Source: a phage. Taken from it: DNA of 64,000 nucleotides. The DNA is taken from the sequence record PZ154896.1; one strand, written 5' to 3'. The notes under the pieces are model-generated. The model did not search any database. It worked only from the letters and a program-made list of their open reading frames with translations, and was not told the origin of the DNA. The position numbers and the translations under genes were made by a program. This document shows, one piece after another, positions 813 through 63,954 of the stretch (position 1 is the first letter of the stretch; every line of letters begins with the position of its first letter).

Positions 813-992
813 TTATGCAACAACCTTTCCAAAACGAGAAGCATCATCTCGAAGAACTGCACGTGCTCTGCGCATGATCTTCTCAACTGTTTGATTAATA
901 CGAGAGTTCGACCCACGCTTGTATCCAGCGCGTTTAGAGGTACCATCAACTTTCTTTTCAACTGCTTTCTTTGCTTTAGCTTGTTTTGCCAT
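813..992 (-). CDS. small lysine-rich basic protein (59 aa, MAKQAKAKKAVEKKVDGTSKRAGYKRGS...)
   Basis: Manual translation; below the 60-aa track cutoff; AAAGAG RBS; ends 6 nt before a strong terminator; preferred over overlapping track ORFs 776..961 and 891..1145. Confidence 0.5.
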   Translation of the reverse strand: MAKQAKAKKAVEKKVDGTSKRAGYKRGSNSRINQTVEKIMRRARAVLRDDASRFGKVVA

Positions 993-1357
993 TATAAATT
1001 CTCTTTAATGAAAATGCAGGACTTATTGACATTGCCTGCGCAAGCCCTCAAGGGGAACATAGGTTTTCGGATATTTAACGACAGGATAACCATAAACCCG
1101 TCATCATACCTTATAGCTCTTATCTGTTGCACACCGTTAGCTTAAAGGTTCCGGGTTCGATTTCTCGAGGATAAGATATATACTGATGGATATATAGGCC
1201 TTTAGGCGTACTCCCGATTGGCCATCACCTCGGGGTAGCATGCACTTGCCGCTATAAGAATAACATTCAAGAGGTACACCGTAAAACTGCCGGGGTCTTA
1301 AAACTATAATGATTCGCAAATCATTAATCAGACAGTTCGACGGCTCCTCGATTTAAC

Positions 1358-1730: not shown

Positions 1731-2063
1731 TCACTTATAAAGACACGGAATAGCTTTATAGTGGCATGTTACGAATTTCTGTTTAATTTCTTTAGGTTGT
1801 TTAAGACCTAAAGCCACAAATGGATGTGGAACATTTCGAATTTGTCCAACTGGTAGTGGAGTCAAATCACCGACTTCAACAAAACCTTCAGGAACATCAG
1901 GACCTACAGAATGAACTACACATAGTTCAGGAACTTCACCTTGAACACGTTTACCAATCACAAGTCCTGATTCTGTAACTTCTTCATCACCTGCTTGAGC
2001 GGGTTCAGAAACCAGAATGACATATTCACCAACAGCACGAATTGGGAGTTGTACTTCAGACAT
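1731..2063 (-). CDS. 31: gp31 co-chaperonin (GroES-like, capsid folding)
   Basis: 110 aa [29 protein letters not shown]... matches T4 gp31. Confidence 0.9.
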
Positions 2064-2120
2064 CTTATTTCCTTGTTGTTTGACGATAGATTAATAATAC
2101 CATACTATTCGTAAAGCATA

Positions 2121-2429
2121 TTACATAAGAAGCAAACGTTCTACAGGAGTACCATCAACCGAAATTACTTTATCAAGGCGGAAAGAACGCCACTGACCTA
2201 ACTTGGTGTCGAATGCTCGAACTGATTCACGAGGTTCATAACGAACTTCTGTTGCTGGATTGTTATTTTCATATTTGACTTCAAGTTCATCGCGCGAAGC
2301 AAACATAGTGCGTACCTCACCGTTAGCCTTTTCAAATACAACACAATGAACGCCTACAGACAGAATAGTTTTAATACGTTCACGAAGAACCATAGTTTCT
2401 TGTTCAGTTAAAATCATATTATTCACCAC
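2121..2429 (-). CDS. hypothetical protein (102 aa; 31.1-position)
   Basis: ORF track; position between cd and 31. Confidence 0.45.
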   Translation of the reverse strand: MVNNMILTEQETMVLRERIKTILSVGVHCVVFEKANGEVRTMFASRDELEVKYENNNPATEVRYEPRESVRAFDTKLGQWRSFRLDKVISVDGTPVERLLLM

Positions 2430-3000
2430 AAAAGTTTCGGATTTGTTCCCAATTCAGGGAACGAAGATTATTACGAGAGTACTGAATTACTTCAATACCG
2501 GCTTGTTTTAGAATGTCTGCCCAATTTTCAGGAGATCGATCGTATAATTCTGCGTATACAACCTTTTTAATACCTGACTGCGTAATAGCTTTAGTGCAAT
2601 CAGGACATGGAGAAAGCGTCGTATATAACGTAGCACCTTCAATAGAATTACCTTTACGAGCTGCAAACAAAATTGCATTCAATTCTGCATGGATTTCATT
2701 ATTAGCAGACCATGCACTATGAGCGGCCCGATGTTCTTTAGCCAAAACAAAATTATCCACCCGTCCAAATGCTGTAGTGCCTTCTTTATGTCCAGCAACG
2801 ATGACCGGGCTTGGTTTATTCTTCAACCAACCGTTTTCGGATGCATGTTCACAACAGTTAACGCCACCTGCTGGTGAGCCATTATATCCAGTAGAGATAA
2901 TGCGTCCATCTTTTTCAATGACGGCACCAACTTTCCATGAACAACATTTTGATTCTTGAGAAATCAGATATGCAATCTGAAGGTATGTGCTAGCTTTCAT
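2419..3000 (-). CDS. cd: dCMP deaminase
   Basis: 193 aa; zinc-deaminase motifs (HAELNAI...PCPDC); strong match to T4 Cd. Confidence 0.9.
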   Translation of the reverse strand: MKASTYLQIAYLISQESKCCSWKVGAVIEKDGRIISTGYNGSPAGGVNCCEHASENGWLKNKPSPVIVAGHKEGTTAFGRVDNFVLAKEHRAAHSAWSANNEIHAELNAILFAARKGNSIEGATLYTTLSPCPDCTKAITQSGIKKVVYAELYDRSPENWADILKQAGIEVIQYSRNNLRSLNWEQIRNFCGE

Positions 3001-3992
3001 TATTGAACCTTATTAATATAAGTTAACAGCTCTTTAGTTTGTTCCCAACCGATGCACGCATCGGTAACGGAAACGCCATAGGACATATTATCAGAAATTT
3101 TTTGATTTCCTTCATGTAGGAATGATTCTATCATAATTCCTTTGACAAAATCATTAGCTGCTAAATTTTTACCAATACCAATTTGATTGCTATAATACCC
3201 ATCAGCGTTTGCGTGGCTACAGTCAACCATTACATAATGATTCAGACCTAATGCACTTGCTTTGTTAGAAGCTTCTTGAATATCAGAAGAATGATAGTTC
3301 GGGCCGTTAGTCCCGCCACGCAATACGATATGCGTATTCTGATTACCTTCAGCTTCAACAATGCCTACAGTACCATCGACGTCCATACCCATATACCGAT
3401 GAGGCCAGGCGGCACTATACATCGCGTCTGTAGCTACTTTAATAGAACCATTGGTTGCGTTCTTGAAGCCTACGCACATCGGTAGACCTGAAGCAATTTC
3501 ACGATGTGTCTGACTTTCAGTCGTACGGGCGCCAATAGCAACCCATGAGAAAATACCAGAAAGATACTTAATCGTGAATGGGTCTAATACTTCAGTTGCT
3601 AATGGAAGTCCCATACGTAGAAGTTTACGACACAATGTTCGTGCAACTATAAGACCGTGGTTCATATCAAAACTTCCGTCAAGATATGGATCATTTACAA
3701 GACCTTTCCAACCTACGGTAGTTCGAGGCTTTTCAAAATAAACGCGCATCACTAACAGAACATTAGGAAGACGAGTTTGAAGTTCAGCCAGACGTTTGCC
3801 GTATTCAACAGCAGCAATAGGGTCATGAATTGAACAAGGACCTACAACAATAAGTTTGCGTGGGTCTTCACCGTTCATAATCGAATTAACTTGTTCGCGA
3901 TGAGAAGCCACTTGTGATGCGTAAGCTTCCGACAAAGGAATAATCTCAGCCAGTTCTTTTGGAGAAATAAGTTTTCTGACGACAGGTAACAT
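3000..3992 (-). CDS. 3-deoxy-D-arabino-heptulosonate-7-phosphate (DAHP) synthase, class I alpha (AroG-like)
   Basis: 330 aa with AroG hallmarks GPCSIHDP, EKPRTTVGWKGL, AIGARTTESQ.HRE, LRGG..PNY, ITDACIGWE; AT-rich phage-like codon usage; ATG with AAGGA RBS. Confidence 0.8.
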   Translation of the reverse strand: MLPVVRKLISPKELAEIIPLSEAYASQVASHREQVNSIMNGEDPRKLIVVGPCSIHDPIAAVEYGKRLAELQTRLPNVLLVMRVYFEKPRTTVGWKGLVNDPYLDGSFDMNHGLIVARTLCRKLLRMGLPLATEVLDPFTIKYLSGIFSWVAIGARTTESQTHREIASGLPMCVGFKNATNGSIKVATDAMYSAAWPHRYMGMDVDGTVGIVEAEGNQNTHIVLRGGTNGPNYHSSDIQEASNKASALGLNHYVMVDCSHANADGYYSNQIGIGKNLAANDFVKGIMIESFLHEGNQKISDNMSYGVSVTDACIGWEQTKELLTYINKVQ

Positions 3993-4112
3993 AACAATCC
4001 TTAGGAGATATAAACAGATTCTGATTCAACAATACCTTTAACCGGATTAGACAGGCTAAGTTGGTAGTGCTAAGATTTATGACCATTCTCGATAGTAATG
4101 AGATAGCTCTCA

Positions 4113-4917: not shown

Positions 4918-5088
4918 TTAACCATTCAATTGCCTGGTCGACGTTATCAAATATACTGCCGTCCAACCATTCTTCATGTTCATAGTCCAGCACATCAATA
5001 CCGAACCGTCCATTTACTAAAGGCCATACTACAAACAAATATTCTTTATGCTGTTCGATGGCCTCAATCACTTCATATAATCGTTTCA

Positions 5089-5089
<1 letters not shown>
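4898..5089 (-). CDS. hypothetical protein (63 aa)
   Basis: ORF track; abuts pseT stop. Confidence 0.4.
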
Positions 5090-6175
<1,086 letters not shown>

Positions 6176-37136: not shown

Positions 37137-39350
37137 TTATTTGGCCGCTTCCACGGCCTTCATGAATTTAACGATTTGAGCGACCTGTTCTTTGGAAAGA
37201 GTACCACGTCGTCCCATGTATTCTGACACAATATGATAATTGGTTTCGAATTCAATAACCATTTTATCATCATTATCGTAAGCATTATCTTTAAGCTTAT
37301 CGAAAATTTTAGCACACAATTCTAACTTCCTGTTCAGGTCTCTGTTATCAGCACCTGCGAATCGATTCCATCCCCAACGATTATTTACTGTTGAAAGTTT
37401 TGCAAAGTCTTTACTGATTTCTTTGTTCTTAGAGCTAAAATACTTACTAAGGAAGTTAAGCTCTTCATTACGAGTAATATGATTCAAATAAGGCTGGGCT
37501 CTACGACTTGGTGATACATACTCATCATAATCCACTTTATCAATTAGCATAATATAGTCATTAATTGATTTTTCAAACAAACATTCTACTTCACCAAGTT
37601 TACGAACTTTCTTAGCAATCTGTGGACGGACTACAGTGAACTCTTTAATACCTGACAAATCAGCAATACGAGTCAAGAAACTAGAATCATAGTTCAACCA
37701 ACCTTTATTTGCGTCAAGACATTCAGCGTTAAAACGATTACGAATTACAACATAACCTTGGATTTCATCAGCTTTACCGGCCGGAATAAAGAGATCTTCT
37801 GATACCCAAACATCGTTTTCATTCTTAAAGAATCGATGAGCACTTGGCGATTTAGGACGAGGCTCATTAGTCCGTTTCCTGACTTCAATCCATGGCTTAA
37901 CGATTTGTAAAAGCTCTGAAGTCTTGTACATGTTAATGTTGTCGCCATCAAAGATAACTTTAAGGCGTTCCAGAAGTTTCATTGCATCTTCGTCTGTAGG
38001 GTCAACGAATAGTACGCTTTTACCAAAACCGCGTGGAACTTTACCGGTTAATTTAACCTCGTCTTTAGACATTTCAATTGAATTAAGAGCTCGCATTAAT
38101 GGAACGCGTCCCTTAACGTCGTCAATAACAATTTCAACATTTTTAATGTTAATGCCAATCAGACTGTTAATTGAAATGGTTGCCGTTGAGCTACCGCTTT
38201 CACGAATACGACGAAGACGAGGGGATTCAACGATATCGTATACGACACCAAGATTACACCACTCAGGCCCCATTTTAAAACGTTTGTACAACTCGGAATA
38301 AGTTAGTTGTTCTTTAGAGTATTTCAGTGATTCAATATTAGACCCAGCCTTTTCCATGTATTTACGAGCGGTATAGCCAAGAGAATCAATTTCACGGAAC
38401 ACATGACGTGGGTATTTACAATCAATCCATTTCTTAGAATCTTCAGCGAACAATTTAGCATCGATTTCTGCAACGCGTTTATGGATATTTGCTACTGTAC
38501 GTTTATCAAATGACAATGCTTCACGAGACGGGGCTACATCTAGTTCACCCATAGGGAATTTAATATAAGCTGTAGTGCATCGCGTCATCATCCATGTTTG
38601 TTCTTTAATAACACTTCCGATTGGATATACAATACCACCATAAACAGCCATGATATTACCACGTTCACCCCATGGAGCTTCCTTGGCCAAATATACATCA
38701 TCGAATTCCGGGAAGTATTTGATATCTTTAACACCACGAACTTCTGCAATATCGCCGAGAGGACGCATAACATAAGCAATTTCGGATGCGAACTTTTCAA
38801 AATCTTCTGGGTTAACAGGCACAACTACTTCAACGCCGGTCCGGTCATCAGGACCCATCTTATCTACGAAGGTTGGCTTAATTTGTGGGCCTGTGTCATC
38901 TTGGTAGATTACGTAACCACGAACTTCACCATTGTGATAAGAAGTAAGGTTAAACGTATCAGTATATGCTAATGGAGCTTTAGAGCCGAGCCCGAATCCA
39001 CCAATGAAATCGTTACTCGATGTTTTAGTTGAAGCAAAATATGAGTTATAGATTCCTGGCTCTTCGTCATTACCTCGAATGGTGAAATCACTCATACCAG
39101 GACCAAAGTCTCGAACTACAAAACGTGGGTCTAAACGACCTGGAGCCTGAACAATAAACTTATCAGTGCAACCATTAAGAATTTGGCCATCGATACAGTT
39201 TGTGATTAATTCACGTACACAAGCCAATTCTTTGTTTGTATAAAGGTCATTAGACAAAATCTTATAAACTTTGCTATTGCCTTGAATAGTAAATGCCGTG
39301 CTCTTACCGCCTGAACCAATAATCGTTTCTTTAGCCGTTTCAATAATCAT
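37137..39350 (-). CDS. rIIA: rIIA protein
   Basis: 737 aa; T4 rIIA length and position immediately upstream of rIIB. Confidence 0.9.
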   Translation of the reverse strand: MIIETAKETIIGSGGKSTAFTIQGNSKVYKILSNDLYTNKELACVRELITNCIDGQILNGCTDKFIVQAPGRLDPRFVVRDFGPGMSDFTIRGNDEEPGIYNSYFASTKTSSNDFIGGFGLGSKAPLAYTDTFNLTSYHNGEVRGYVIYQDDTGPQIKPTFVDKMGPDDRTGVEVVVPVNPEDFEKFASEIAYVMRPLGDIAEVRGVKDIKYFPEFDDVYLAKEAPWGERGNIMAVYGGIVYPIGSVIKEQTWMMTRCTTAYIKFPMGELDVAPSREALSFDKRTVANIHKRVAEIDAKLFAEDSKKWIDCKYPRHVFREIDSLGYTARKYMEKAGSNIESLKYSKEQLTYSELYKRFKMGPEWCNLGVVYDIVESPRLRRIRESGSSTATISINSLIGINIKNVEIVIDDVKGRVPLMRALNSIEMSKDEVKLTGKVPRGFGKSVLFVDPTDEDAMKLLERLKVIFDGDNINMYKTSELLQIVKPWIEVRKRTNEPRPKSPSAHRFFKNENDVWVSEDLFIPAGKADEIQGYVVIRNRFNAECLDANKGWLNYDSSFLTRIADLSGIKEFTVVRPQIAKKVRKLGEVECLFEKSINDYIMLIDKVDYDEYVSPSRRAQPYLNHITRNEELNFLSKYFSSKNKEISKDFAKLSTVNNRWGWNRFAGADNRDLNRKLELCAKIFDKLKDNAYDNDDKMVIEFETNYHIVSEYMGRRGTLSKEQVAQIVKFMKAVEAAK

Positions 39351-39362
39351 ATTTTTCTCTCA

Positions 39363-39563
39363 TCACAAGTTACGTTTAAAAATTTCTGCCACTTCAAGAA
39401 GTTCTTCTTTAGTAGCTGTATCGGTTTGTATTTTATATCGAATTTCTTTAAAGCGTTCTTTAAAAGACTCTGCCGACTCGATATCAAAAAATCTTTGGAT
39501 AAGCCGGAATTCCCGGAGCACAGCTTTATCAAAAAGTTCCAAGTCCACGTTATATGTTCTCAT
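39363..39563 (-). CDS. rIIA.1: hypothetical protein (66 aa; rIIA.1-position)
   Basis: ORF track; directly upstream of rIIA. Confidence 0.5.
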   Translation of the reverse strand: MRTYNVDLELFDKAVLREFRLIQRFFDIESAESFKERFKEIRYKIQTDTATKEELLEVAEIFKRNL

Positions 39564-39655: not shown

Positions 39656-40756
39656 TTACGCTGTGAAGATTTTATCCCACATCGCAACAACTGCATCTCG
39701 GTTATACTTCTTCCATACTGCTTCAGCACGTTTAACTCGAGCTTCGTATGTGTCAGTGAATTCTAATACAGCTTTTGTGTAAAGCGCAACTACTTCTTTC
39801 TTAGGAGTAGAGGAATCAATTTCTACACGCACAGTATCTGGGTCGTATTCAAATGTCGCATGAGGATAATCCTTAAAAACTAACTGGATTACAGGGACAC
39901 CTTTAGAGATGGCTTCAATAGAACTATTCTCTACTGTACCTGTGTCAGGACAAGTATTAATAAGTGCTTTAGCTGTTTTAAGACGTTCCATGATTTCACT
40001 GTGTGGGGCATCAATAATAACAGGATATTTAGATGGTGGTGCCCATTTGCTTGGACAGTATCCTACACCATTTTCGCCTAGTGCTTTAATCGCTTCAAGA
40101 GCAACATCAGTACGACGCATTTTAGTGTCATAACGTTGTGCACTAATAATCAGATCAGTCGCCGGAAGAACTTCAGGTTTCTCATTCAAACAAATAACCG
40201 GATAATCTTCGGCTTCAAACAACGGATTTGCTCGCCAATAATCATAATCAATTTTGTCAGTCAGACCTGAAGTCATATGGCAATATTTACGTTCAAATTC
40301 ACGGAAGGCTTTAGTAGGAGCATAACTCTTACCACCATTCTTATGAATTTGAATAGTCTGGTCCCAAATTTGAACAATGCCACGAGATACTGGTTCAAAT
40401 GGTGTTGCCATAAAATTCTTATGAACTTTAGAGAGACCTGCGTCTTTAATTGCCTGAACGGTTAGTTTAGTCGGTTCCATAGTAACAACAAAATCGTATT
40501 CATGGATGCCGGCTAGTTCAACAATCTTACGAGCCATAGTATAACTCATACCTAGACTGAATTTAGTCAGATGACCAACAGGATGGTGTGTAACTTTCCA
40601 GTCACCAAACGTGTCATTATCAAAGCCGATATAATCAATATCAGCACCGATGGACACAAGATATTTCAACACATTTAAATGTACTGCTTCAAGGCCACCT
40701 TGTACACGGTCAGGATTAAATGGGACTGCGCGAGATGGGATAAACATAACTTTCAT
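39656..40756 (-). CDS. GT-B fold glycosyltransferase (GT4-like)
   Basis: 366 aa; N-terminal RVQGGLEAVHLNVLKYL and C-terminal TGTVENSSIEAISKGVPVI motifs typical of retaining GT4 enzymes; sits between rIIA.1 and gene 39. Confidence 0.6.
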   Translation of the reverse strand: MKVMFIPSRAVPFNPDRVQGGLEAVHLNVLKYLVSIGADIDYIGFDNDTFGDWKVTHHPVGHLTKFSLGMSYTMARKIVELAGIHEYDFVVTMEPTKLTVQAIKDAGLSKVHKNFMATPFEPVSRGIVQIWDQTIQIHKNGGKSYAPTKAFREFERKYCHMTSGLTDKIDYDYWRANPLFEAEDYPVICLNEKPEVLPATDLIISAQRYDTKMRRTDVALEAIKALGENGVGYCPSKWAPPSKYPVIIDAPHSEIMERLKTAKALINTCPDTGTVENSSIEAISKGVPVIQLVFKDYPHATFEYDPDTVRVEIDSSTPKKEVVALYTKAVLEFTDTYEARVKRAEAVWKKYNRDAVVAMWDKIFTA

Positions 40757-40770
40757 AATTAAGCCTTATT

Positions 40771-40800
40771 AAAATTAAAATGAAGCTCCCGAAGGAGCTT
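40771..40800 (-). terminator. hairpin abutting gene 39 stop (AAGCTCC-ttcg-GGAGCTT + U-rich tail); terminator or mRNA-stability element
   Basis: 7-bp stem 40783-40800 directly after TAA, followed by UUUUAAUUUU. Confidence 0.5.
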
Positions 40801-42616
40801 AGGACATCCATTCTTTACGAAGTTCAGAATCATCACCCAACAACATTTCAAAGAGTTCTTTCCAATTTTCAGGAAGTTTAACTACGTCGTACACAGGGTT
40901 CTGAATCATTTCACGATATTCTGACTTTTCAAGGGAGCCCAATCCCTTGATGTATCGAATACTATGCTTAGGAAGTGTATCTTTAGCTTCTTCATACTCA
41001 GCTACAGTATAAAACCATTTTTGAGTTTTGCCAATTTGTGCAATAATTACAGGCGTTTTAACAAAGCGAATACGTCCTTGTTCAAACAATTCAGGCCAAT
41101 TACTAAAGAAAGCAAGCAAAGCCGGATAAATACTTCCAAGACCGTCATGATCGGCATCGGTCATAATTGCAATATTACGATAGTTCGTATTCTCTGCCTT
41201 TTCACCAAGAATAAGACCTGTGATAGCACAGATATCGAAGAGCTCTTTGTTCTTCATCATATCAGCATATGACATACCCCAGCTATTCATCACCTTACCA
41301 CGTAATGGGAATCCGCCGTGTAGTTCACGGTCACGAACATCAATGAGATAACCAATTGCCGAATCACCTTCTGTTAAAAACAATGTCGTATCTGCATCTT
41401 TACCACATTGGTTAGCTTTAATATGCTTATGAACCTTAGCTTTAGTTGCCTTTTTAGCTGCTTTAGTTTCTGCGGCCTTTTCTGCTGCCAATTTACGAGC
41501 TAATGCGGCTTCAACAATAGGCATAATCAAGGCTTCGTTTTTAAGAAGTGCCTGAGCAATTTTCTTAGCATCCAATTGGATATGATTACGAATATCACCA
41601 TACGTTGACGTTAAACGTTCTTTAGTCTGAGAATCAAAACGCATGTTGCTCATGTCTCTAATAAACATCAACATTGTGAGACATTCTTTAACACGAGCTT
41701 TAGTGACTTCAATACCCTTATATTTCTTTTTAATGCCGGGCAAAAGATGTTCGCAGATATCATCCATTACACATTCAACATGATGACCACCATTTTTAGT
41801 ATGGATGTTATTCACATAAGTTAAATGACGGAAGCCGTCTGGTGATGTTGTGAATGCTATAGAGACTTTATCATTTTCTTGAATGATGTTATCTTCACCA
41901 AATTGTTTAGCAAATCGTTTAAAATTACCATCAACCTTTTTACCATTAAATGTGAACTTGATATCAGGATAAACGACTGCCAATGTTTGAAGTCGGTCTA
42001 AAGTAATATCTAAATAAATTTGAGATAAATTATGCTCTTCAAATGAAGAGAAATCAGGAGTGAAGATTACTTTAGTGCCTTTACCTTTAGATTTCTTAGA
42101 AGACCATGATTTGTTTTCCATTCCGTTTGAACAGTTAACAGTGATTTCATTTTCGCCATCTGACGTGATGCCTGTAAACAACGTAGAGAAGATATTAGTT
42201 AAACTACTCCCGACGCCGTTCATACCACCAGTCTTACGTTCAGAGTCATCACCAAAGTTACCACCAGCCTTTGGAATAGTCCAGGCTGCTACAGGCCCAG
42301 GAATTTGTTCACCTGTTTGGTCGGTAACTAAACCTTGAGGAATACCACGTCCGTTATCTTCCACTGAGACTTGATTATTTTTAATTTGCACATCAATTTT
42401 ATTTGCAAACTTAAATGATGTACGAATAGCTTCATCAACCGAGTTGTCAATAATCTCATCGATTAATTTAACCAGACCAGGAACATATTCAACTTGTTGA
42501 TATTTACCAAACAAAAAACGCTCGTGGGCTTCTTTAGCCGAAGAACCAATATACATGCCACTGCGTTTCTTAATATGTTCTACATCTGACAATACCTTAA
42601 TTTCATTTTTAATCAT
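40799..42616 (-). CDS. 39: DNA topoisomerase II large (ATPase) subunit gp39, intact single ORF
   Basis: 605 aa; GHKL ATPase and TOPRIM motifs; no split into 39/60 and no bypass element. Confidence 0.9.
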   Translation of the reverse strand: MIKNEIKVLSDVEHIKKRSGMYIGSSAKEAHERFLFGKYQQVEYVPGLVKLIDEIIDNSVDEAIRTSFKFANKIDVQIKNNQVSVEDNGRGIPQGLVTDQTGEQIPGPVAAWTIPKAGGNFGDDSERKTGGMNGVGSSLTNIFSTLFTGITSDGENEITVNCSNGMENKSWSSKKSKGKGTKVIFTPDFSSFEEHNLSQIYLDITLDRLQTLAVVYPDIKFTFNGKKVDGNFKRFAKQFGEDNIIQENDKVSIAFTTSPDGFRHLTYVNNIHTKNGGHHVECVMDDICEHLLPGIKKKYKGIEVTKARVKECLTMLMFIRDMSNMRFDSQTKERLTSTYGDIRNHIQLDAKKIAQALLKNEALIMPIVEAALARKLAAEKAAETKAAKKATKAKVHKHIKANQCGKDADTTLFLTEGDSAIGYLIDVRDRELHGGFPLRGKVMNSWGMSYADMMKNKELFDICAITGLILGEKAENTNYRNIAIMTDADHDGLGSIYPALLAFFSNWPELFEQGRIRFVKTPVIIAQIGKTQKWFYTVAEYEEAKDTLPKHSIRYIKGLGSLEKSEYREMIQNPVYDVVKLPENWKELFEMLLGDDSELRKEWMS

Positions 42617-54483: not shown

Positions 54484-55143
54484 TTAACCTCGATTCATAA
54501 ATGCATTAAATATTTGGTCATCAACAGAAATTTCTAATTCGACTTCAATTGCTTCAGCCTTTTCTTCAGGTGGTAATTCGTATCCACACACTACAATTTT
54601 TTCATCGATATCAAAATACACAGAAGCAATATGATTAATGTTATTTTCGGTTAAGTCTAAATCAACATCAACATCTTTTTGACCTACACTTAAAGGATAA
54701 CTAATACGGGTTATTTTATTATCTTTAACAAAGAGACCACCGACATACTCTGTACTACGTTTGAAGTCTACACGTTTCCGAAATGAAAGATATGATGCAT
54801 CTTTACCGTGAGCTCGGCTCATAGGGCATAATGAATAGCTAGAATATGAGATGTCAAATCCTACACCTTCAATATGAGCCAACGCGTCATGATTAAACCA
54901 ATTATAATCATATGCCAAATCCATTATATTGTAATATGTGAAAGGCACCGGATTAACATCATACGTTGTACCTTTAAAATCTGCCCAGGCAACGATTTCG
55001 TTATCTTTAACAATTACAAAAATTACACCAATATGGTATCCGTTATTATTTTCATTCGGCGTTATATTATAACATTGTGCATTAGGAAATTTACCATATT
55101 TAAATGGCGCATTTTTGTGCATATAATAAATCATATTATTCAC
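54484..55143 (-). CDS. hypothetical protein (219 aa)
   Basis: ORF track. Confidence 0.45.
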   Translation of the reverse strand: MNNMIYYMHKNAPFKYGKFPNAQCYNITPNENNNGYHIGVIFVIVKDNEIVAWADFKGTTYDVNPVPFTYYNIMDLAYDYNWFNHDALAHIEGVGFDISYSSYSLCPMSRAHGKDASYLSFRKRVDFKRSTEYVGGLFVKDNKITRISYPLSVGQKDVDVDLDLTENNINHIASVYFDIDEKIVVCGYELPPEEKAEAIEVELEISVDDQIFNAFMNRG

Positions 55144-58285: not shown

Positions 58286-58627
58286 TTAAAAGAATTTAAA
58301 TTTTTTCTTGGTCCGTTCATTAAAAGCTTGTTGTACTTGCATTGTAACACATTTTTCAACATGTGGTGCAAGTTCTGCTTTTCTGTCCTGGTCAAGAACT
58401 GCAAAGTCCATTACGATTTTACCATCAACCCAGTCTAGTTTTGTAATATAGACTATATGATGAGAACCATCTTCAAGCGTAATCAGAATCTCTTGAATGA
58501 CATTTTCCATTGCTGAACGGATAATTTTAAGAGATTCATTAAACACTCGTTCTTTGCGAATGTCTTCCCCTTCCGAAGAAGGGGATTCATCAACGATTTC
58601 TAGATTTAAATCATCGAGATTATTCAT
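58286..58627 (-). CDS. 40: gp40 head vertex assembly chaperone (tentative)
   Basis: Internal ATG overlapping uvsX 3' end; 113 aa; T4 position between uvsX and 41. Confidence 0.5.
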   Translation of the reverse strand: MNNLDDLNLEIVDESPSSEGEDIRKERVFNESLKIIRSAMENVIQEILITLEDGSHHIVYITKLDWVDGKIVMDFAVLDQDRKAELAPHVEKCVTMQVQQAFNERTKKKFKFF

Positions 58628-59792
58628 CGAAATCTTCCATTTCGTCAAGGTCGTTTTCTATATCTGCTGCAGACGGAGCATCAGAAGTTTTAACCGGAAC
58701 TTTAGTTGTTGCTTTGCAATTAATAAGGTCGTTAACAGCATCATCAACTTCTTTAATAGAAGAGATAGCACCTAGTTTATATTTAGTTTCAATTGCATCT
58801 CGGAAAGGTTTGTGTTTAAACAACGGTCCCCAGAATTCTACACAATCAGTAGCTTTAGCACGCCATGATTTTTCTTCACGAATCATTTCGCCTGTTTCTT
58901 CGTCAAGGAATTCGCGAGCATACCACCCGGCTTTAGGCTTAACTACAAAACCAATTTCAGTTGCCATTTCTAACAAGCCACTGAATGGGTCAATACCACC
59001 ATCGAAATTAACCGTGATTGGGAAAGTAGATTTTTCTTTAACGGTGCGAGATTTTTCCGCTTTCAACGTGAAGTCATAACCGGTCAATTCTGTACCTTCT
59101 TTAACCTGACGTTTAGAGATAAAAAATACCGTGTTGGCAGAATAAAGAATACCTGTACCACCACCCATAATCTCTTTAGGATACAATCCGCCGATTTCCA
59201 TTGCTGTATGGTTGATTGCAACACATGGAATATCTTTAATAGTCAGATACGGGGTCACAATGCGGAACAGAGATTTAAGTGCCTTAGCACGAGACATATC
59301 ACCTACAACTTTCTCGTTCAATGCATCTTCGGTTTCTTTCTTAGACGCAGTATTACCGATTGAATCGATAAAGATAATAACTTTATCACCGCGTTCAATC
59401 GCGTCAAGCTGATTAGTCATATCAACTTTAAGTTGTTCGACAGATTGAATCGGAGTATGAACTACACGGTCTAAATCAACACCCATTGAACGAAAATAAG
59501 ATTCTGAAGCACCAAATTCCGAATCATAGAACAAACAAATTGCATCTTTATATTTCTTCATATATGCTGCAACCATGGTCAGTCCAAACAACGTTTTAAA
59601 GTGTTTAGAAGGAGCAGCAAAAATAGTTAAGCCTGATTGCAACCCAGCATTCAGTGCACCACCTAATGCAATATTCAACATCGGAATACGAGTAGGGACT
59701 TCATCACGATTATTAAACAGCTTAGACTTGGTCAAGTCTGCAGTCATTTTAGAAGTAGAAGCTTTAATCAGACGAGATTTTAAATCAGACAT
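58620..59792 (-). CDS. uvsX: UvsX recombinase (RecA-like)
   Basis: 390 aa; RecA-like ATPase core; T4 UvsX length and position. Confidence 0.9.
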   Translation of the reverse strand: MSDLKSRLIKASTSKMTADLTKSKLFNNRDEVPTRIPMLNIALGGALNAGLQSGLTIFAAPSKHFKTLFGLTMVAAYMKKYKDAICLFYDSEFGASESYFRSMGVDLDRVVHTPIQSVEQLKVDMTNQLDAIERGDKVIIFIDSIGNTASKKETEDALNEKVVGDMSRAKALKSLFRIVTPYLTIKDIPCVAINHTAMEIGGLYPKEIMGGGTGILYSANTVFFISKRQVKEGTELTGYDFTLKAEKSRTVKEKSTFPITVNFDGGIDPFSGLLEMATEIGFVVKPKAGWYAREFLDEETGEMIREEKSWRAKATDCVEFWGPLFKHKPFRDAIETKYKLGAISSIKEVDDAVNDLINCKATTKVPVKTSDAPSAADIENDLDEMEDFDE

Positions 59793-59891: not shown

Positions 59892-60440
59892 TTAACGAGC
59901 CCATTTGATAATTTCTGTAATCAAATAATTACGTTCGCTTGCATTAAATCCTATAACTTTGTTAGCGCCATCATGATTAAGTAATTGATACGTTTGGATT
60001 TCGTTATGAATTGCAAACTCTTCAAAATATGAAATGACTGTATTAAACCCGAATGAAGACAAAGTAATAAGGTCGTCTTCAAAACTTTCAGTCATTTCGT
60101 TACGTGTTAAAATAATTGTGAACACATCATGGTTTTGGCAAAGACGAACATAATCCTGTTCATAAACGTCGAGAACCGAGTCCGCATCTTGTCGAATACG
60201 TCCATAAACCCAGTTACTAATATATCCACGGTCTAGCAGATAAATCTTAGTAGGGTCTAAATAATTCAACATCGTTTCGAAACAGCCAACTTCATTTCGA
60301 GACTTAACATCGAAACGTCCATCAACTGTTCGTTTAGGGAAATCAATCTTTACATATCTTTCACTAATTTCCATTATGTCATTAATGAAAGTTGTTTTAC
60401 CAGCATTATCCGGGCCATCTACTAAAATAATTTTAGCCAT
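59892..60440 (-). CDS. thymidylate-kinase-family P-loop nucleotide kinase
   Basis: 182 aa; P-loop ILVDGPDNAGKTT and TMK DRx motif DRGYISNWVYG; GAGGA RBS; 1-nt gap after upstream gene. Confidence 0.65.
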   Translation of the reverse strand: MAKIILVDGPDNAGKTTFINDIMEISERYVKIDFPKRTVDGRFDVKSRNEVGCFETMLNYLDPTKIYLLDRGYISNWVYGRIRQDADSVLDVYEQDYVRLCQNHDVFTIILTRNEMTESFEDDLITLSSFGFNTVISYFEEFAIHNEIQTYQLLNHDGANKVIGFNASERNYLITEIIKWAR

Positions 60441-60441
60441 T

Positions 60442-61341
60442 TTATTCCTCGATTACGACATCTTCATATTTAGGTATATTATACGGCGAAGAAATTAAAG
60501 CATTAAAGTAGATGAACTCACCAAGACCTGGATGGAATACTTCTTCAGGATTTTCGAAATATTGAATCTTCGGTCGTCCTTTAAGAATTTGATAGTACTC
60601 AGTTTTAGTTGGTTTAAAAATTCGAATCAGCGCTTCTTCAGGATACTTATTTCTGTCGAAGCTATTATTTGGATCGGTTATATAAAGCGGTTGACCTAAT
60701 TGAATTGCACATTCAACCACTTGTTCAAAACGATAACACGGGTCACTAATTCGAAATGGATGAAAAATACCATCTAGATGAATAGGAGCCAAATCACCTA
60801 CAAGACGCTGCATGATGGAAGGACGTATAACTTTCTGGGTTACGATAATCTTATTACCATCGGCACCAGCGTTAACCAGCACTTCCTTTTGACGTTTATT
60901 CAACACAGTAGTTTGAAGTGAACGATTAACCGACAGCATGTCGGTTTTTAAGAATTCGTCAATATAAAAACGTGGTTTATTAGGGTCTGCAGTGATATTG
61001 AAATTGAATTCCACATCAAAAGCGCCGTCATATCCAGTGATATCTGTGATTAGAAAATCACAATCATAATAAGCAATTAATGAATCAACAACAAATTCAT
61101 TTTCAGACCAGAAATATTTACGAGTGTTATACGCGTTATCTTTATACCATAATGGAACAAACTTAAATTCCGGAAAAAGACGTTCACATTCTTTAATATC
61201 AGATGCATTACGTGGATATGTAATCACATCACCTGGATTAGCACGGTGCAAATGAAGTTGGAAGTTGCCATCCTTAAGGATAGCATACTGTCCAGTTTCA
61301 TAAGACCGCATACTCAAGATAGGTACGCGGAAAATAGCCAT
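60442..61341 (-). CDS. hypothetical protein (299 aa) in the beta-glucosyltransferase slot
   Basis: ORF track; TAATG overlap with upstream gp42-family gene; no resemblance to T4 beta-gt. Confidence 0.5.
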   Translation of the reverse strand: MAIFRVPILSMRSYETGQYAILKDGNFQLHLHRANPGDVITYPRNASDIKECERLFPEFKFVPLWYKDNAYNTRKYFWSENEFVVDSLIAYYDCDFLITDITGYDGAFDVEFNFNITADPNKPRFYIDEFLKTDMLSVNRSLQTTVLNKRQKEVLVNAGADGNKIIVTQKVIRPSIMQRLVGDLAPIHLDGIFHPFRISDPCYRFEQVVECAIQLGQPLYITDPNNSFDRNKYPEEALIRIFKPTKTEYYQILKGRPKIQYFENPEEVFHPGLGEFIYFNALISSPYNIPKYEDVVIEE

Positions 61342-62057
61342 TAGTCAAGGAATCCTTTAACATAATCAAAATCACGTTCAAACACATGGGCACTTACCAT
61401 GGTATGAGTATAATCACCAACTTCTACACCACATTCGTTAGCGATATAATGAAGTAATTTTCCTTGGAGATAAAAATCCAACTGCATAACAACAGCACAG
61501 TTCTGAGAACGCATATGACAGTGGGTATAAAGCTTACCATCACGAATATAATAAGTCACTGAGTCAGTACATGGATATTCAAGTGTTTCGTCCGAATCAA
61601 GCAAAGCCTGATCTGAACTTTCAAGAATTTGAAACACAACTCTTCGTGAATTAGGTTTCTCTTTAAGTTCTTTTAGAAGAGCTGGTAATTGGGCCGCAAT
61701 GCGAGGACCATAGAAAGTGTTGAAGTTCGCCGGCAAAACATCTGATTTTGGTTTAGAAATAAATTTAGCGACATTAGGATATGCCTTAAACGCTTCTTCT
61801 GCGTTGGTACCGCCAGAAATCATAAACTTCCAGAAGTCTTCGGCATATTCATAAGAGATGCGGTTAATACGTGGGTCGGTCATTTTGAATGTTGACGGGG
61901 TATCAACAACTACTGTCATAGACCCAATTTCATTACAACGTCCAATACGAGAATCAGTTACGAATTCCGGGTTTTCTAAAATTTCACGATTGACTGCTTT
62001 AAATGCGGTTTGAAAATCTGCGGCTTTGATATATTTCATTGTGTTATGTTTTCCCAT
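61341..62057 (-). CDS. thymidylate-synthase/dCMP-hydroxymethylase family enzyme, divergent gp42-like
   Basis: 238 aa; NSRR phosphate site, nucleophile Cys in YPCTDS, Asp in QLDFY at the pyrimidine-specifying position (cytosine-type) but RSQN where TS has RSCD and gp42 RSND; only ~30% identity to T4 gp42 by eye. Confidence 0.65.
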   Translation of the reverse strand: MGKHNTMKYIKAADFQTAFKAVNREILENPEFVTDSRIGRCNEIGSMTVVVDTPSTFKMTDPRINRISYEYAEDFWKFMISGGTNAEEAFKAYPNVAKFISKPKSDVLPANFNTFYGPRIAAQLPALLKELKEKPNSRRVVFQILESSDQALLDSDETLEYPCTDSVTYYIRDGKLYTHCHMRSQNCAVVMQLDFYLQGKLLHYIANECGVEVGDYTHTMVSAHVFERDFDYVKGFLD

Positions 62058-62075
62058 GTTTACCTCAATACAATT

Positions 62076-62101
62076 TATTATATACTCAATTCGTAAAGCT
62101 T
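62076..62101 (-). promoter_or_regulatory. MotA-type middle promoter for the gp42-like operon (MotA box AGCTTTA, -10 TATAAT)
   Basis: MotA-box core 62093-62099 (minus) 11 bp upstream of TATAAT at 62077-62082; ~20 nt before the ATG. Confidence 0.45.
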
Positions 62102-62178
62102 ATTTGAATTTCTTGATAATGTTGATATAACGTAAAGCTTCAGCATCGATACTTCCAAGAACACTATGAAGAAATGCA

Positions 62179-62340
62179 TCAGCGTAGTATTCCAATTGAA
62201 CAGGTTTCTTTAATCACTTTAGCCGCTTTAGTTTCAAACAGGCCCATCAGGGCCTTTTTAAGAATTTGTTCGTTGCTGTTAATTTTCGTAGTCAAAATCT
62301 CTTCATTAAGTTGGTGGTTAAAAGTTTTTCTAGAAATCAT
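62179..62340 (-). CDS. possible small protein (53 aa) coupled to the upstream Cys-rich enzyme
   Basis: Manual translation MISRKTFNHQLNEEILTTKINSNEQILKKALMGLFETKAAKVIKETCSIGILR; ATGA overlap with upstream stop; contains GGCCC-ugau-GGGCC hairpin that could instead be a terminator. Confidence 0.3.
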   Translation of the reverse strand: MISRKTFNHQLNEEILTTKINSNEQILKKALMGLFETKAAKVIKETCSIGILR

Positions 62341-63497
62341 TCCGGGTACCTCAAAGCGTCATCAGAGTTAGTTATATCAATAATAGATATAGAGTTTTCT
62401 GCTAACCCGTTTTTAGATAATTGACGTTTATAATATCTTTCACAATATGTACACGTCGTCCCGCAGATTTCATTAGCACAATCGAAATCTGGATGTCTGA
62501 ACCACCTTTTTTCTAAAAAGCCATCTAACAAAGAGGTTTCAATATTTACTGTATGTGAAAACTCTGTCTCATTTTCAAGAGTGAAAATGGTCTCTAAAGG
62601 CTTCCACAGTTCTAACAAATTACCTTCAAACTTTTCAGAAGCATAAGCTTCAAGAACTTTCAAAATGTAGTCTGTGCTACCTGTACGTCCTGAAACTTTG
62701 AATTGAGTGATACCAATATCATTATAAAGTTTCAAATCTTGAGGACGAACAAAACGAGTTCTCAACCAGTTAAATGGATCTGTATCACGAGCTTTAATAC
62801 AGTGCTGCATTGGATATCCATTTAAAGATTTGGCATCATCTACTGTAACATCGGTGCTATGGAAAATATAGCAAGAGTCACGATAACTACAATGTGTTGT
62901 ATACCCTTTACCAGCATTAGAACAGAACTCATTTACAAGAACTTCAAATATTATATTGTTCTTATTACAAAACTCTGCTGCACGCTTCAGGAAAGAAACT
63001 GAACGGTTCTTATGAATTCCGCAGCAGACCTTTTTGATATTATATTGGTCATGCAAGTATTTGATTTGAGTTACAGCATCGACATGTAGAATTGTTGAAA
63101 CTTCAATCTCAATGTCTTTATTGACTTCACGAACAATTTCCATAACAACAGGGTTAGCGATAGTAATACGCCATACGCCTATTGACCAAAGATACTGAAC
63201 ATAATCCTGAATAGCTTTCTTCTTCCACTCAACTAGTTCTCTTTTTGAACCAGGATTTATCGTGTTGAGTGTATAGTTAAAGCAAATACCTAATTCGTTA
63301 CAACGTTTAACGTAATCTTCTAACATCTTTTTGTCAACGTCAGGAAGCCTAAAATCAGGTCTGGCTGCTACAAAAGCCATTTCTCTTGTAGAGCCGTATA
63401 CTTCGTTTATCAAGCTATTAGGATAAGTTTTATTGAGCTCTACGATTTTATCAAGAAGAGCTAAATCAAAATTCGTTCCGATTTTAAAAGTATTCAT
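62337..63497 (-). CDS. Cys-rich TIM-barrel-like enzyme, tentatively U32 family (RlhA/TrhP/UbiU-like)
   Basis: 386 aa; blocks GTNFDLALLDKIVEL, NPVVMEIVREV..IEIEVS and HCSYRDSC resemble U32 motifs (AG.L..L.AAI, DPG.IMLVRE..P...IHLS, C-x6-C); extra C-terminal CX4CX3CX2C cluster. Confidence 0.45.
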   Translation of the reverse strand: MNTFKIGTNFDLALLDKIVELNKTYPNSLINEVYGSTREMAFVAARPDFRLPDVDKKMLEDYVKRCNELGICFNYTLNTINPGSKRELVEWKKKAIQDYVQYLWSIGVWRITIANPVVMEIVREVNKDIEIEVSTILHVDAVTQIKYLHDQYNIKKVCCGIHKNRSVSFLKRAAEFCNKNNIIFEVLVNEFCSNAGKGYTTHCSYRDSCYIFHSTDVTVDDAKSLNGYPMQHCIKARDTDPFNWLRTRFVRPQDLKLYNDIGITQFKVSGRTGSTDYILKVLEAYASEKFEGNLLELWKPLETIFTLENETEFSHTVNIETSLLDGFLEKRWFRHPDFDCANEICGTTCTYCERYYKRQLSKNGLAENSISIIDITNSDDALRYPE

Positions 63498-63552
63498 TTT
63501 TACATCTCGCGTTAATTGATGCGATGGTTTTTTGCAGGTCTTACTTAAATTA

Positions 63553-63954
63553 TTATAGATTCGGTTTATATGATTTAAATGTTTCGAATTCGCCTTTATT
63601 CATAAGAGCTTTGAATTCGTCAGGACGCATAGCTTTGTCGTCGATAATCCAATCATATACTGGTTTATGTGTTAGCAAATTATGGTACTTCAATCCAATG
63701 TTTGCCAAGTTCTGAATCAGACTTGGGAGAATGTCAATTGCTATACGACCAGGACCTACTGACTTCATACCGCGAGCAGTGTAAAGCGTTATTGTATGCC
63801 CTGCATCATACAGGGCATTAATGGCAGACACCATTTCGACGTCTGGTTTGAAGTTCACGTAATCACGATTGTTATTCCACTCTGTTATACAATCATCGAC
63901 ATCAAAACAAAGATTAAGCATGTTTTTTACACGGTGCATTAGATTCGTTCCCAT
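63553..63954 (-). CDS. HAD-superfamily phosphatase (small, capless)
   Basis: 133 aa; motif I FDVDDCIT, motif II ITLYTARG, motif III K (HKP), motif IV IIDDK. Confidence 0.6.
   Translation of the reverse strand: MGTNLMHRVKNMLNLCFDVDDCITEWNNNRDYVNFKPDVEMVSAINALYDAGHTITLYTARGMKSVGPGRIAIDILPSLIQNLANIGLKYHNLLTHKPVYDWIIDDKAMRPDEFKALMNKGEFETFKSYKPNL

Follow-up and report, generated by a model that had tools for sequence, protein, structure and literature searches.

A GT-B glycosyltransferase encoded between rIIA.1 and gene 39 as the probable second arabinosyltransferase of Mosigvirus DNA

INTRODUCTION

In phages T2 and T6, a second-sugar transferase converts alpha-glucosyl-hmC into gentiobiosyl-hmC. 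This enzyme extends a sugar that is already borne on DNA, so that an alpha-linked first sugar comes to carry a second one in beta linkage, as we propose here for a 366-residue enzyme of Mosigvirus phages. The T2/T6 enzyme uses glucose on hmC, whereas the enzyme described here would act with arabinofuranose in a 5-hydroxycytosine context. The T4 glucosyltransferases alpha-gt (GT72) and beta-gt (GT63) also resemble it, as proposed here, in having the GT-B fold, a UDP-sugar donor, a DNA acceptor and a gene in the early region of T4-like genomes.

Arabinose in the DNA of phage RB69 was reported by Thomas et al. in 2018, who proposed ORF003c as the arabinosyltransferase on the basis of custom HMMs and HHpred, without biochemistry (PMC6024577). 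Lee et al. showed in 2026 that the modified base is 5-hydroxycytosine, not hmC, and described the RB69 product as beta-D-Araf-(1->3)-alpha-D-Araf-O-5-hydroxy-dC (PMC13326640). The arabinose of Mosigvirus DNA is ether-linked to 5-hydroxycytosine (PMC13326640, PMC13390438). The 5-hydroxy-dCMP synthase activity of RB69 gp48, the gene-42 homologue, was shown in the same work, in which gp46:47 was proposed as the first transferase and gp3/RB69p003 was listed as 'beta-arabinosyltransferase 2' (PMC13326640). With UDP-Araf, gp76 and gp77 of Acinetobacter phage DLP3 jointly attach a third arabinose to the DNA of RB69, an activity that neither protein had alone, and no individual DLP3 glycosyltransferase was active on bare 5hoC DNA (PMC13326640).

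Further phages have been characterized chemically or genetically. Mosigvirus NP contains mono- and di-arabinosyl-dC in a 1:4 ratio (PMC13390438), Bas46 and Bas47 are doubly arabinosylated (PMC12923530), and Bas46 devoid of the arabinosyltransferase Aat is sensitised to a defence system (PMC13216743). TH1_063 of Thanatos-1 was reported to act as a UDP-xylose pyrophosphorylase in vitro and to be inactive as a transferase when plain plasmid DNA was the substrate (PMC12838424). In the literature searched, which did not include the primary HY126 and Aat papers, we found no experiment in which the activity of the Mosigvirus enzyme was measured directly.

RESULTS

Identification of the gene as the RB69 ORF003c orthologue

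We analysed a stretch of 64,000 nucleotides of phage DNA (PZ154896.1), hereafter the window, to which all coordinates refer unless another locus is named. A sequence-only reading had placed a glycosyltransferase ORF between rIIA.1 and gene 39, and its coordinates, its length of 366 codons and its location on the minus strand were exact. The region is organized as follows.

37137..39350, minus strand: rIIA, downstream of rIIA.1 and followed by rIIB
39363..39563, minus strand: rIIA.1, the downstream neighbour (Pfam T4_RIIA1, E 2e-30)
39656..40756, minus strand: 366-aa glycosyltransferase gene with an ATG start, orthologue of RB69 ORF003c/gp3 (from the ORF list and sequence identity)
40799..42616, minus strand: gene 39, the upstream neighbour, coding for the 605-aa topoisomerase II large subunit (Pfam DNA_gyraseB, HATPase_c and Toprim)

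In the window, gene 39 is one continuous 605-aa ORF, whereas in T4 the coding sequence of this protein is split into genes 39 and 60, separated by mobA and 60.1. The rIIA.1/39 junction is thus one of the sites at which T4-like genomes vary. The G+C content is 0.396 for the glycosyltransferase gene and 0.378 for the window. Farther along, a 219-aa protein (54484..55143, minus strand) matches Pfam AdfA, anti-DarT factor A (E 4e-121), a counter-defence function already known from T4-like phages.

The 366-aa protein has the same length as RB69 ORF003c (gp3, NP_861693.1) and is identical to it at 361 of 366 positions. The gene order of RB69 (rIIA / rIIA.1 / ORF003c / 39) matches that of the window, as does the map of HY126, with the gene at the rIIA.1/39 position. 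This level of identity, together with the shared position between rIIA.1 and gene 39, makes the gene the orthologue of ORF003c and assigns the window to an RB69-like phage. In a PDB sequence search, the chain of entries 9IQZ and 9IR0 was identical at 363 of 366 positions. The fold-library titles of these entries, both released on 2025-07-16, are 'phage HY126 glycosyltransferase' (apo) and '... with UDP', respectively; that the 99%-identical HY126 enzyme binds UDP is taken from the depositors' title of 9IR0. The three differences, G164A, S242A and S315F, are also present in the HY126 genome record, and none falls on a family-invariant column. Approximately 150 Mosigvirus genomes are 95-99% identical to this gene at the DNA level, and its product matches phrog_8302 (E 3.5e-222), annotated in PHROGs as 'unknown function'.

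The gene is thus already known, not new: as RB69 ORF003c it was proposed to code for an arabinosyltransferase in 2018 (PMC6024577), its pathway was revised in 2025-2026, and a crystal structure with UDP exists for the HY126 orthologue (9IR0). Its earlier description from the window as an open candidate is superseded. The HY126 GenBank protein (locus 3001..4101) differs from the 9IQZ chain at residues 288-289, with LG in place of PV. As the PV pair shows little or no variation within the family, the GenBank record may hold a sequence error at this site.

Fold and sequence motifs

Searches of Pfam and NCBIfam with the 366-aa protein returned no family at E <= 1, and 9IQZ was the sole match of the family profile among PDB sequences. 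In a distant relative, P0015, the matches to Glycos_transf_1 were all sub-threshold. By profile, the protein does not belong to CAZy GT4 or to Pfam Glycos_transf_1. The sequence-only reading had suggested a profile search against glycosyltransferase families as a check; the Pfam, NCBIfam and PDB profiles gave no link to such a family, and fold comparison alone provided one.

We modelled the protein with AF2 from a 12-sequence alignment that included relatives retrieved by an exhaustive HMMER search. The model had a pLDDT of 90.8 and a pTM of 0.87; an earlier run with a 6-sequence alignment (pLDDT 58.8) was set aside. Comparison with Foldseek matched the model to 9IR0/9IQZ with TM values of 0.94-0.97. 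The next matches were GT4-type GT-B enzymes using UDP- or GDP-sugars, at 10-14% identity: the tetrahydrobiopterin glucosyltransferase BGluT, PimA, BshA, MshA, WaaG, LmbT and sucrose-phosphate synthase. The protein has the two Rossmann-like domains and the inter-domain cleft that characterize GT-B enzymes. Its description as a GT-B, GT4-like glycosyltransferase is thus upheld by the fold (AF2 model, Foldseek) and not by sequence profiles.

The family-invariant columns include R208, D210, R214, E276 and E281, and G20 and G21 are nearly invariant. Of the EX7E motif of GT4 enzymes, the second Glu is kept as the invariant E281, in 'IEAISKGVPV', and the first position is occupied by G273 instead of Glu. 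E276 is found within the sequence 'TGTVEN-S-EA'. The family is set apart from the cellular retaining GT4 enzymes (PimA, MshA, BshA, WaaG, BGluT, sucrose-phosphate synthase) by G273 and by the family-specific, invariant E276, in addition to the low identity and to scores below the Pfam thresholds. The acceptors differ as well, being a lipid, a small molecule or a glycan for the cellular enzymes and, as proposed here, a sugar on DNA for the 366-aa enzyme.

Alignment of the family profile with the single T4 a-gt and b-gt sequences by hhalign yielded probabilities of 0.3% and 0.2%, respectively, which show only that there is no close relationship, and the Pfam T4 glucosyltransferase domain is absent from the protein. 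By these sequence comparisons, it is not a close relative of either T4 enzyme. No hydrophobic segment was detected, the maximal 19-residue Kyte-Doolittle mean being 1.07. A soluble, UDP-sugar-dependent GT-B glycosyltransferase is the best explanation for these features.

The arabinosylation cluster and the beta-gt slot

An arabinosylation cluster is located close to the end of the window, beyond uvsX.

58620..59792: uvsX, which adjoins the cluster
59892..60440, minus strand: thymidylate-kinase-like gene, equivalent of RB69 gp45 (PHROG 761, E 6e-45; role from PMC13326640, Table 1)
60442..61341, minus strand: 299-aa protein, equivalent of RB69 gp46:47 and proposed first (alpha, base-proximal) arabinosyltransferase (PHROG 3891; role from PMC13326640)
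61341..62057, minus strand: gene-42 homologue, 5-hydroxy-dCMP synthase with a thymidylate-synthase fold (Pfam Thymidylat_synt; E 2e-160 to PDB 9IQC/9IR2)
62337..63497, minus strand: Peptidase-U32-like protein, equivalent of RB69 gp50 (Pfam Peptidase_U32, PHROG 5757)
63553..63954, minus strand: HAD-like phosphatase, equivalent of RB69 gp51 and HY126 AfhF (PHROG 1238)

The HAD-like phosphatase has been reported to convert Araf-1,5-bisphosphate to Araf-1-phosphate (PMC13326640), and the remaining sugar-activation genes lie beyond the window end. The gene for the 366-aa enzyme is located some 20 kb from this cluster (59892..63954). The order of genes in T4 is uvsX / b-gt / 42; in the window, the kinase-like gene and that of the 299-aa transferase fill the b-gt slot. 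Contrary to the sequence-only reading, which saw unrelated genes at the beta-gt position, the gene for the other putative arabinosyltransferase lies at this site, adjacent to that of a 5-hydroxy-dCMP synthase, which takes the place of dCMP hydroxymethylase. BLASTP detected no similarity between the 366-aa enzyme and the 299-aa protein, arguing that the two putative transferases are not recent paralogues. The Thanatos-1 protein TH1_063 (locus 4995..5897) is 47% identical to the 299-aa protein of the window.

Distribution, linkage and copy number of the family

Homologues of the 366-aa enzyme were identified in 212 phage records, corresponding to Mosigvirus, 55 Acinetobacter phages and one Tegunavirus, all of them T4-like phages. 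The exhaustive HMMER search of 1.84 billion representative proteins yielded 11 relatives, and a search of plasmids for homologues gave no match. Homologues of the 299-aa transferase are present in 349 phage records and in many more genera.

DLP3, Acj61, AbTZA1 and one more viral contig harbor two tandem homologues directly after the genes for the HAD protein, the synthase, the first transferase and the kinase. These tandem, Acinetobacter-phage-type homologues are 40-43% identical to the 366-aa enzyme. In a fifth Acinetobacter-type locus (L012), the gene order is rearranged and one homologue copy is split. Co-occurrence of the family with the cluster was thus confirmed, the two being adjacent in the five Acinetobacter-type loci examined and some 20 kb apart in the window. 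As the homologues are found elsewhere inside the cluster or upstream of uvsX, the Mosigvirus gene between rIIA.1 and gene 39 looks like a relocated cluster gene. Gene positions also hint that the site upstream of uvsX, i.e., the classical beta-gt position, may be the ancestral location of the family. An ENA metagenome contig (k141_689949, 72..1217) codes for a divergent member, with 35% identity by local tblastn, directly upstream of a uvsX homologue.

We then compared the number of family members with the published composition of phage DNA. Thanatos has no copy and carries one pentose on its base. One copy each was found here in RB69, Bas46 and Bas47, all reported to be di-arabinosylated, as is NP. 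DLP3 has two copies and three arabinoses on the base. These data, from a handful of chemically characterised phages, support a correlation between the copy number of the family (0, 1 or 2) and the arabinoses per base (1, 2 or 3). A 378-aa Thanatos protein encoded in the corresponding slot, TH1_065, was considered as a divergent family member and rejected, as it is the U32-like protein.

Hairpins and spacers around the gene

The two intergenic spacers that flank the glycosyltransferase gene contain inverted repeats.

40783..40800, minus strand: hairpin AAGCUCC-UUCG-GGAGCUU with a T-rich tail, overlapping the gene 39 stop codon
39564..39655, minus strand: 92-nt spacer between the glycosyltransferase gene and rIIA.1, with a long hairpin that has an 11-bp perfect stem (GGCACUAUUAC/GUAAUAGUGCC)

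The existence of the first hairpin, which had been thought to separate the glycosyltransferase gene from gene 39, was confirmed, with its UUCG loop in the 42-nt spacer after gene 39. Nevertheless, by energy (z -0.9) and by count (one terminator-like site versus 0.9 expected), it is no more than what chance gives. It is a candidate terminator-like or RNA-stabilising element, kept in JK45 and phi25-307 and with one loop change in HY126. The start codon of the glycosyltransferase gene is 27 nt past the hairpin stem, with an AAGG ribosome-binding site ahead of it. The 92-nt spacer folds with a dG of -28.6 kcal/mol (z -4.3), and none of 200 shuffled sequences was equally stable. Its copies in JK45 and phi25-307 are identical to that of the window, and that of HY126 has two changes. 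No sigma-70-like promoter was found in the 92-nt spacer or directly upstream of the glycosyltransferase gene, and inspection of the latter region by eye revealed no T4 late promoter and no convincing MotA-type promoter.

Some relatives have insertions on either side of the gene. In Shigella phage JK45 (locus 857..1267), an additional ORF of 136 aa separates the glycosyltransferase gene from rIIA.1. This ORF starts with the five initial codons of rIIA.1 (MRTYN), which are joined to the sequence for the C-terminal third of the glycosyltransferase, and it is flanked on each side by an exact copy of the 92-nt spacer. It is a partial tandem duplication, which may be real or an assembly artefact. 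The idea that it represents a mobile regulatory cassette was dropped because its translation shows the rIIA.1/glycosyltransferase fusion that results from such a duplication. In some Mosigviruses, a gene for an HNH homing endonuclease is present between gene 39 and the glycosyltransferase gene (Shigella phage phi25-307, locus 2000..2797). The endonuclease ORF shares the last codons of gene 39 and the hairpin, indicating that the end of gene 39 was duplicated at the insertion site. SQ17 has a similar insertion.

DISCUSSION

Proposed function

We propose that the 366-aa protein is a UDP-Araf-dependent transferase that acts on DNA and adds the second, beta-1,3-linked arabinose, a reading to which we assign a probability of about 0.75. 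The more general statement, that it is some DNA arabinosyltransferase of the arabinosyl-5-hydroxycytosine pathway, can be made with high confidence. The sequence-only reading had favored a DNA-base glycosyltransferase acting on hmC, of which the role in DNA modification is retained in view of the linkage to the cluster. However, the base is 5-hydroxycytosine (PMC13326640, PMC13390438), and the acceptor that we propose is the first arabinose. The suggestion that the sugar might differ from that of T4, possibly being arabinose, fits with the presence of arabinose in Mosigvirus DNA (PMC13326640, PMC13390438).

In the published pathway, the gene-42 homologue makes 5-hydroxy-dCMP, which enters the DNA at replication. 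UDP-arabinofuranose is supplied by a phage isomerase, a kinase/pyrophosphorylase and a phosphatase. The 299-aa transferase encoded in the beta-gt slot would place the first alpha-D-Araf on the 5-hydroxyl, after which the 366-aa enzyme would extend it, in polymeric DNA, by a second arabinose. The predicted product is beta-D-Araf-(1->3)-alpha-D-Araf-O-5-cytosine, the main modified base of Mosigvirus DNA.

The closest described counterparts are gp77 and gp76 of Acinetobacter phage DLP3 (beta-arabinosyltransferases 2 and 3), which belong to the same family and the same pathway and are 43% and 40% identical to the 366-aa enzyme over the full length. The three proteins have the family-conserved motifs GG-LEAV, AQR-D-R and TGTVEN-S-EA in common. 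DLP3 has two tandem copies in its cluster and a tri-arabinosyl base, whereas the Mosigvirus phages have a single gene some 20 kb from the cluster and two arabinoses. The second step and the beta-1,3 linkage are most likely the work of the 366-aa protein itself. That a single enzyme performs this step is an extrapolation, since the DLP3 paralogues are active only as a pair and for the third addition only. For the same reason, the single Mosigvirus enzyme might act only together with another protein, perhaps the first transferase. The roles assigned to the 299-aa and 366-aa enzymes are likewise provisional, because the Thanatos homologue of the former was reported to act as a UDP-xylose pyrophosphorylase in vitro, in conflict with a function as first transferase.

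The close structural neighbours of the 366-aa enzyme are all retaining GT4-type enzymes, and the second arabinose is beta-linked. With retaining relatives and a beta product, retention versus inversion hinges on the anomeric configuration of natural UDP-D-Araf. Rather tentatively, a GT4-like scaffold might form the beta-D-Araf-(1->3) bond with retention from a beta-configured UDP-D-Araf, or else this small family, restricted to phages, might be an inverting branch of a retaining clan, perhaps acting with the help of a partner.

Alternative functions

As originally proposed for RB69 ORF003c, the enzyme might be the base-proximal transferase that attaches the first arabinose to the modified cytosine. 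Its proposal as an arabinosyltransferase by Thomas et al. (PMC6024577) is in line with this possibility, as are the Bas46 and Bas47 records, in which it is labelled 'putative hmC-arabinosyltransferase', and the report that TH1_063 of Thanatos, a homologue of the other candidate, acted in vitro as a UDP-xylose pyrophosphorylase and not as a transferase (PMC12838424). Nevertheless, many genera, including that of the pentosylated Thanatos, have the synthase cluster and the 299-aa protein and lack the 366-aa family, so the first transfer cannot depend on that family. In addition, the copies of the family match the extra arabinoses rather than the presence of arabinose as such. Finally, the DLP3 paralogues act on DNA that is already arabinosylated, and none is individually active on bare 5hoC DNA (PMC13326640). 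We therefore consider a base-proximal role unlikely, and addition of the second arabinose remains the preferred reading.

Two other functions have almost no support. The enzyme could have been thought to modify the LPS or the capsule of the host for superinfection exclusion or host takeover, without a role on DNA, as the sequence-only reading had also envisaged. Its nearest structural neighbours do include WaaG, WaaB, PimA and WbnH, and PSI-BLAST gave Thomas et al. a weak hit to a lipooligosaccharide galactosyltransferase (PMC6024577). However, the likeness to envelope enzymes is at the level of the fold only, with 8-15% identity and no match in Pfam or NCBIfam, and there is no hydrophobic segment that would suggest a location at the membrane. 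The rarity of the family (11 relatives among 1.84 billion representatives, without a plasmid match), its confinement, among annotated phage genomes, to T4-like phages that bear the cluster, and the position of that cluster, beside the family in five Acinetobacter-type loci and some 20 kb away in the window, all argue against a surface function. Neither of the traits expected of an envelope glycosyltransferase, homologues in bacterial polysaccharide loci or association with the membrane, was found, and we regard this function as highly improbable. The same holds for a role resembling that of T4 alpha-gt, as a glucosyltransferase of hmC in DNA, which is the label of the gene or of its Acinetobacter homologues in several GenBank records.

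Annotation and biological significance

In most GenBank records the gene is labelled 'hypothetical protein'. It is called 'DNA alpha-glucosyltransferase' in the HX01 RefSeq record and in several Acinetobacter phages, and 'GDP-mannose-dependent alpha-(1-2)-phosphatidylinositol mannosyltransferase' in 308Ecol101PP. Several records that name E. coli or Shigella as the source have the gene on contigs of approximately 169 kb, probably themselves genomes of phages. The practical value of the present assignment is in annotation, as the alpha-glucosyltransferase and mannosyltransferase names are mislabels.

Arabinosylated 5-hydroxycytosine shields phage DNA from type II restriction enzymes, DNA-targeting CRISPR-Cas systems and other defences (PMC13326640, PMC13216743, PMC12923530, PMC13390438). 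The number of arabinoses appears to alter the level of protection; for example, cleavage by MluCI differs between RB69 and DLP3 DNA. Knowing the gene for the second sugar helps to predict the DNA chemistry of therapeutic Mosigvirus phages from their sequences and to engineer phages with defined modifications.
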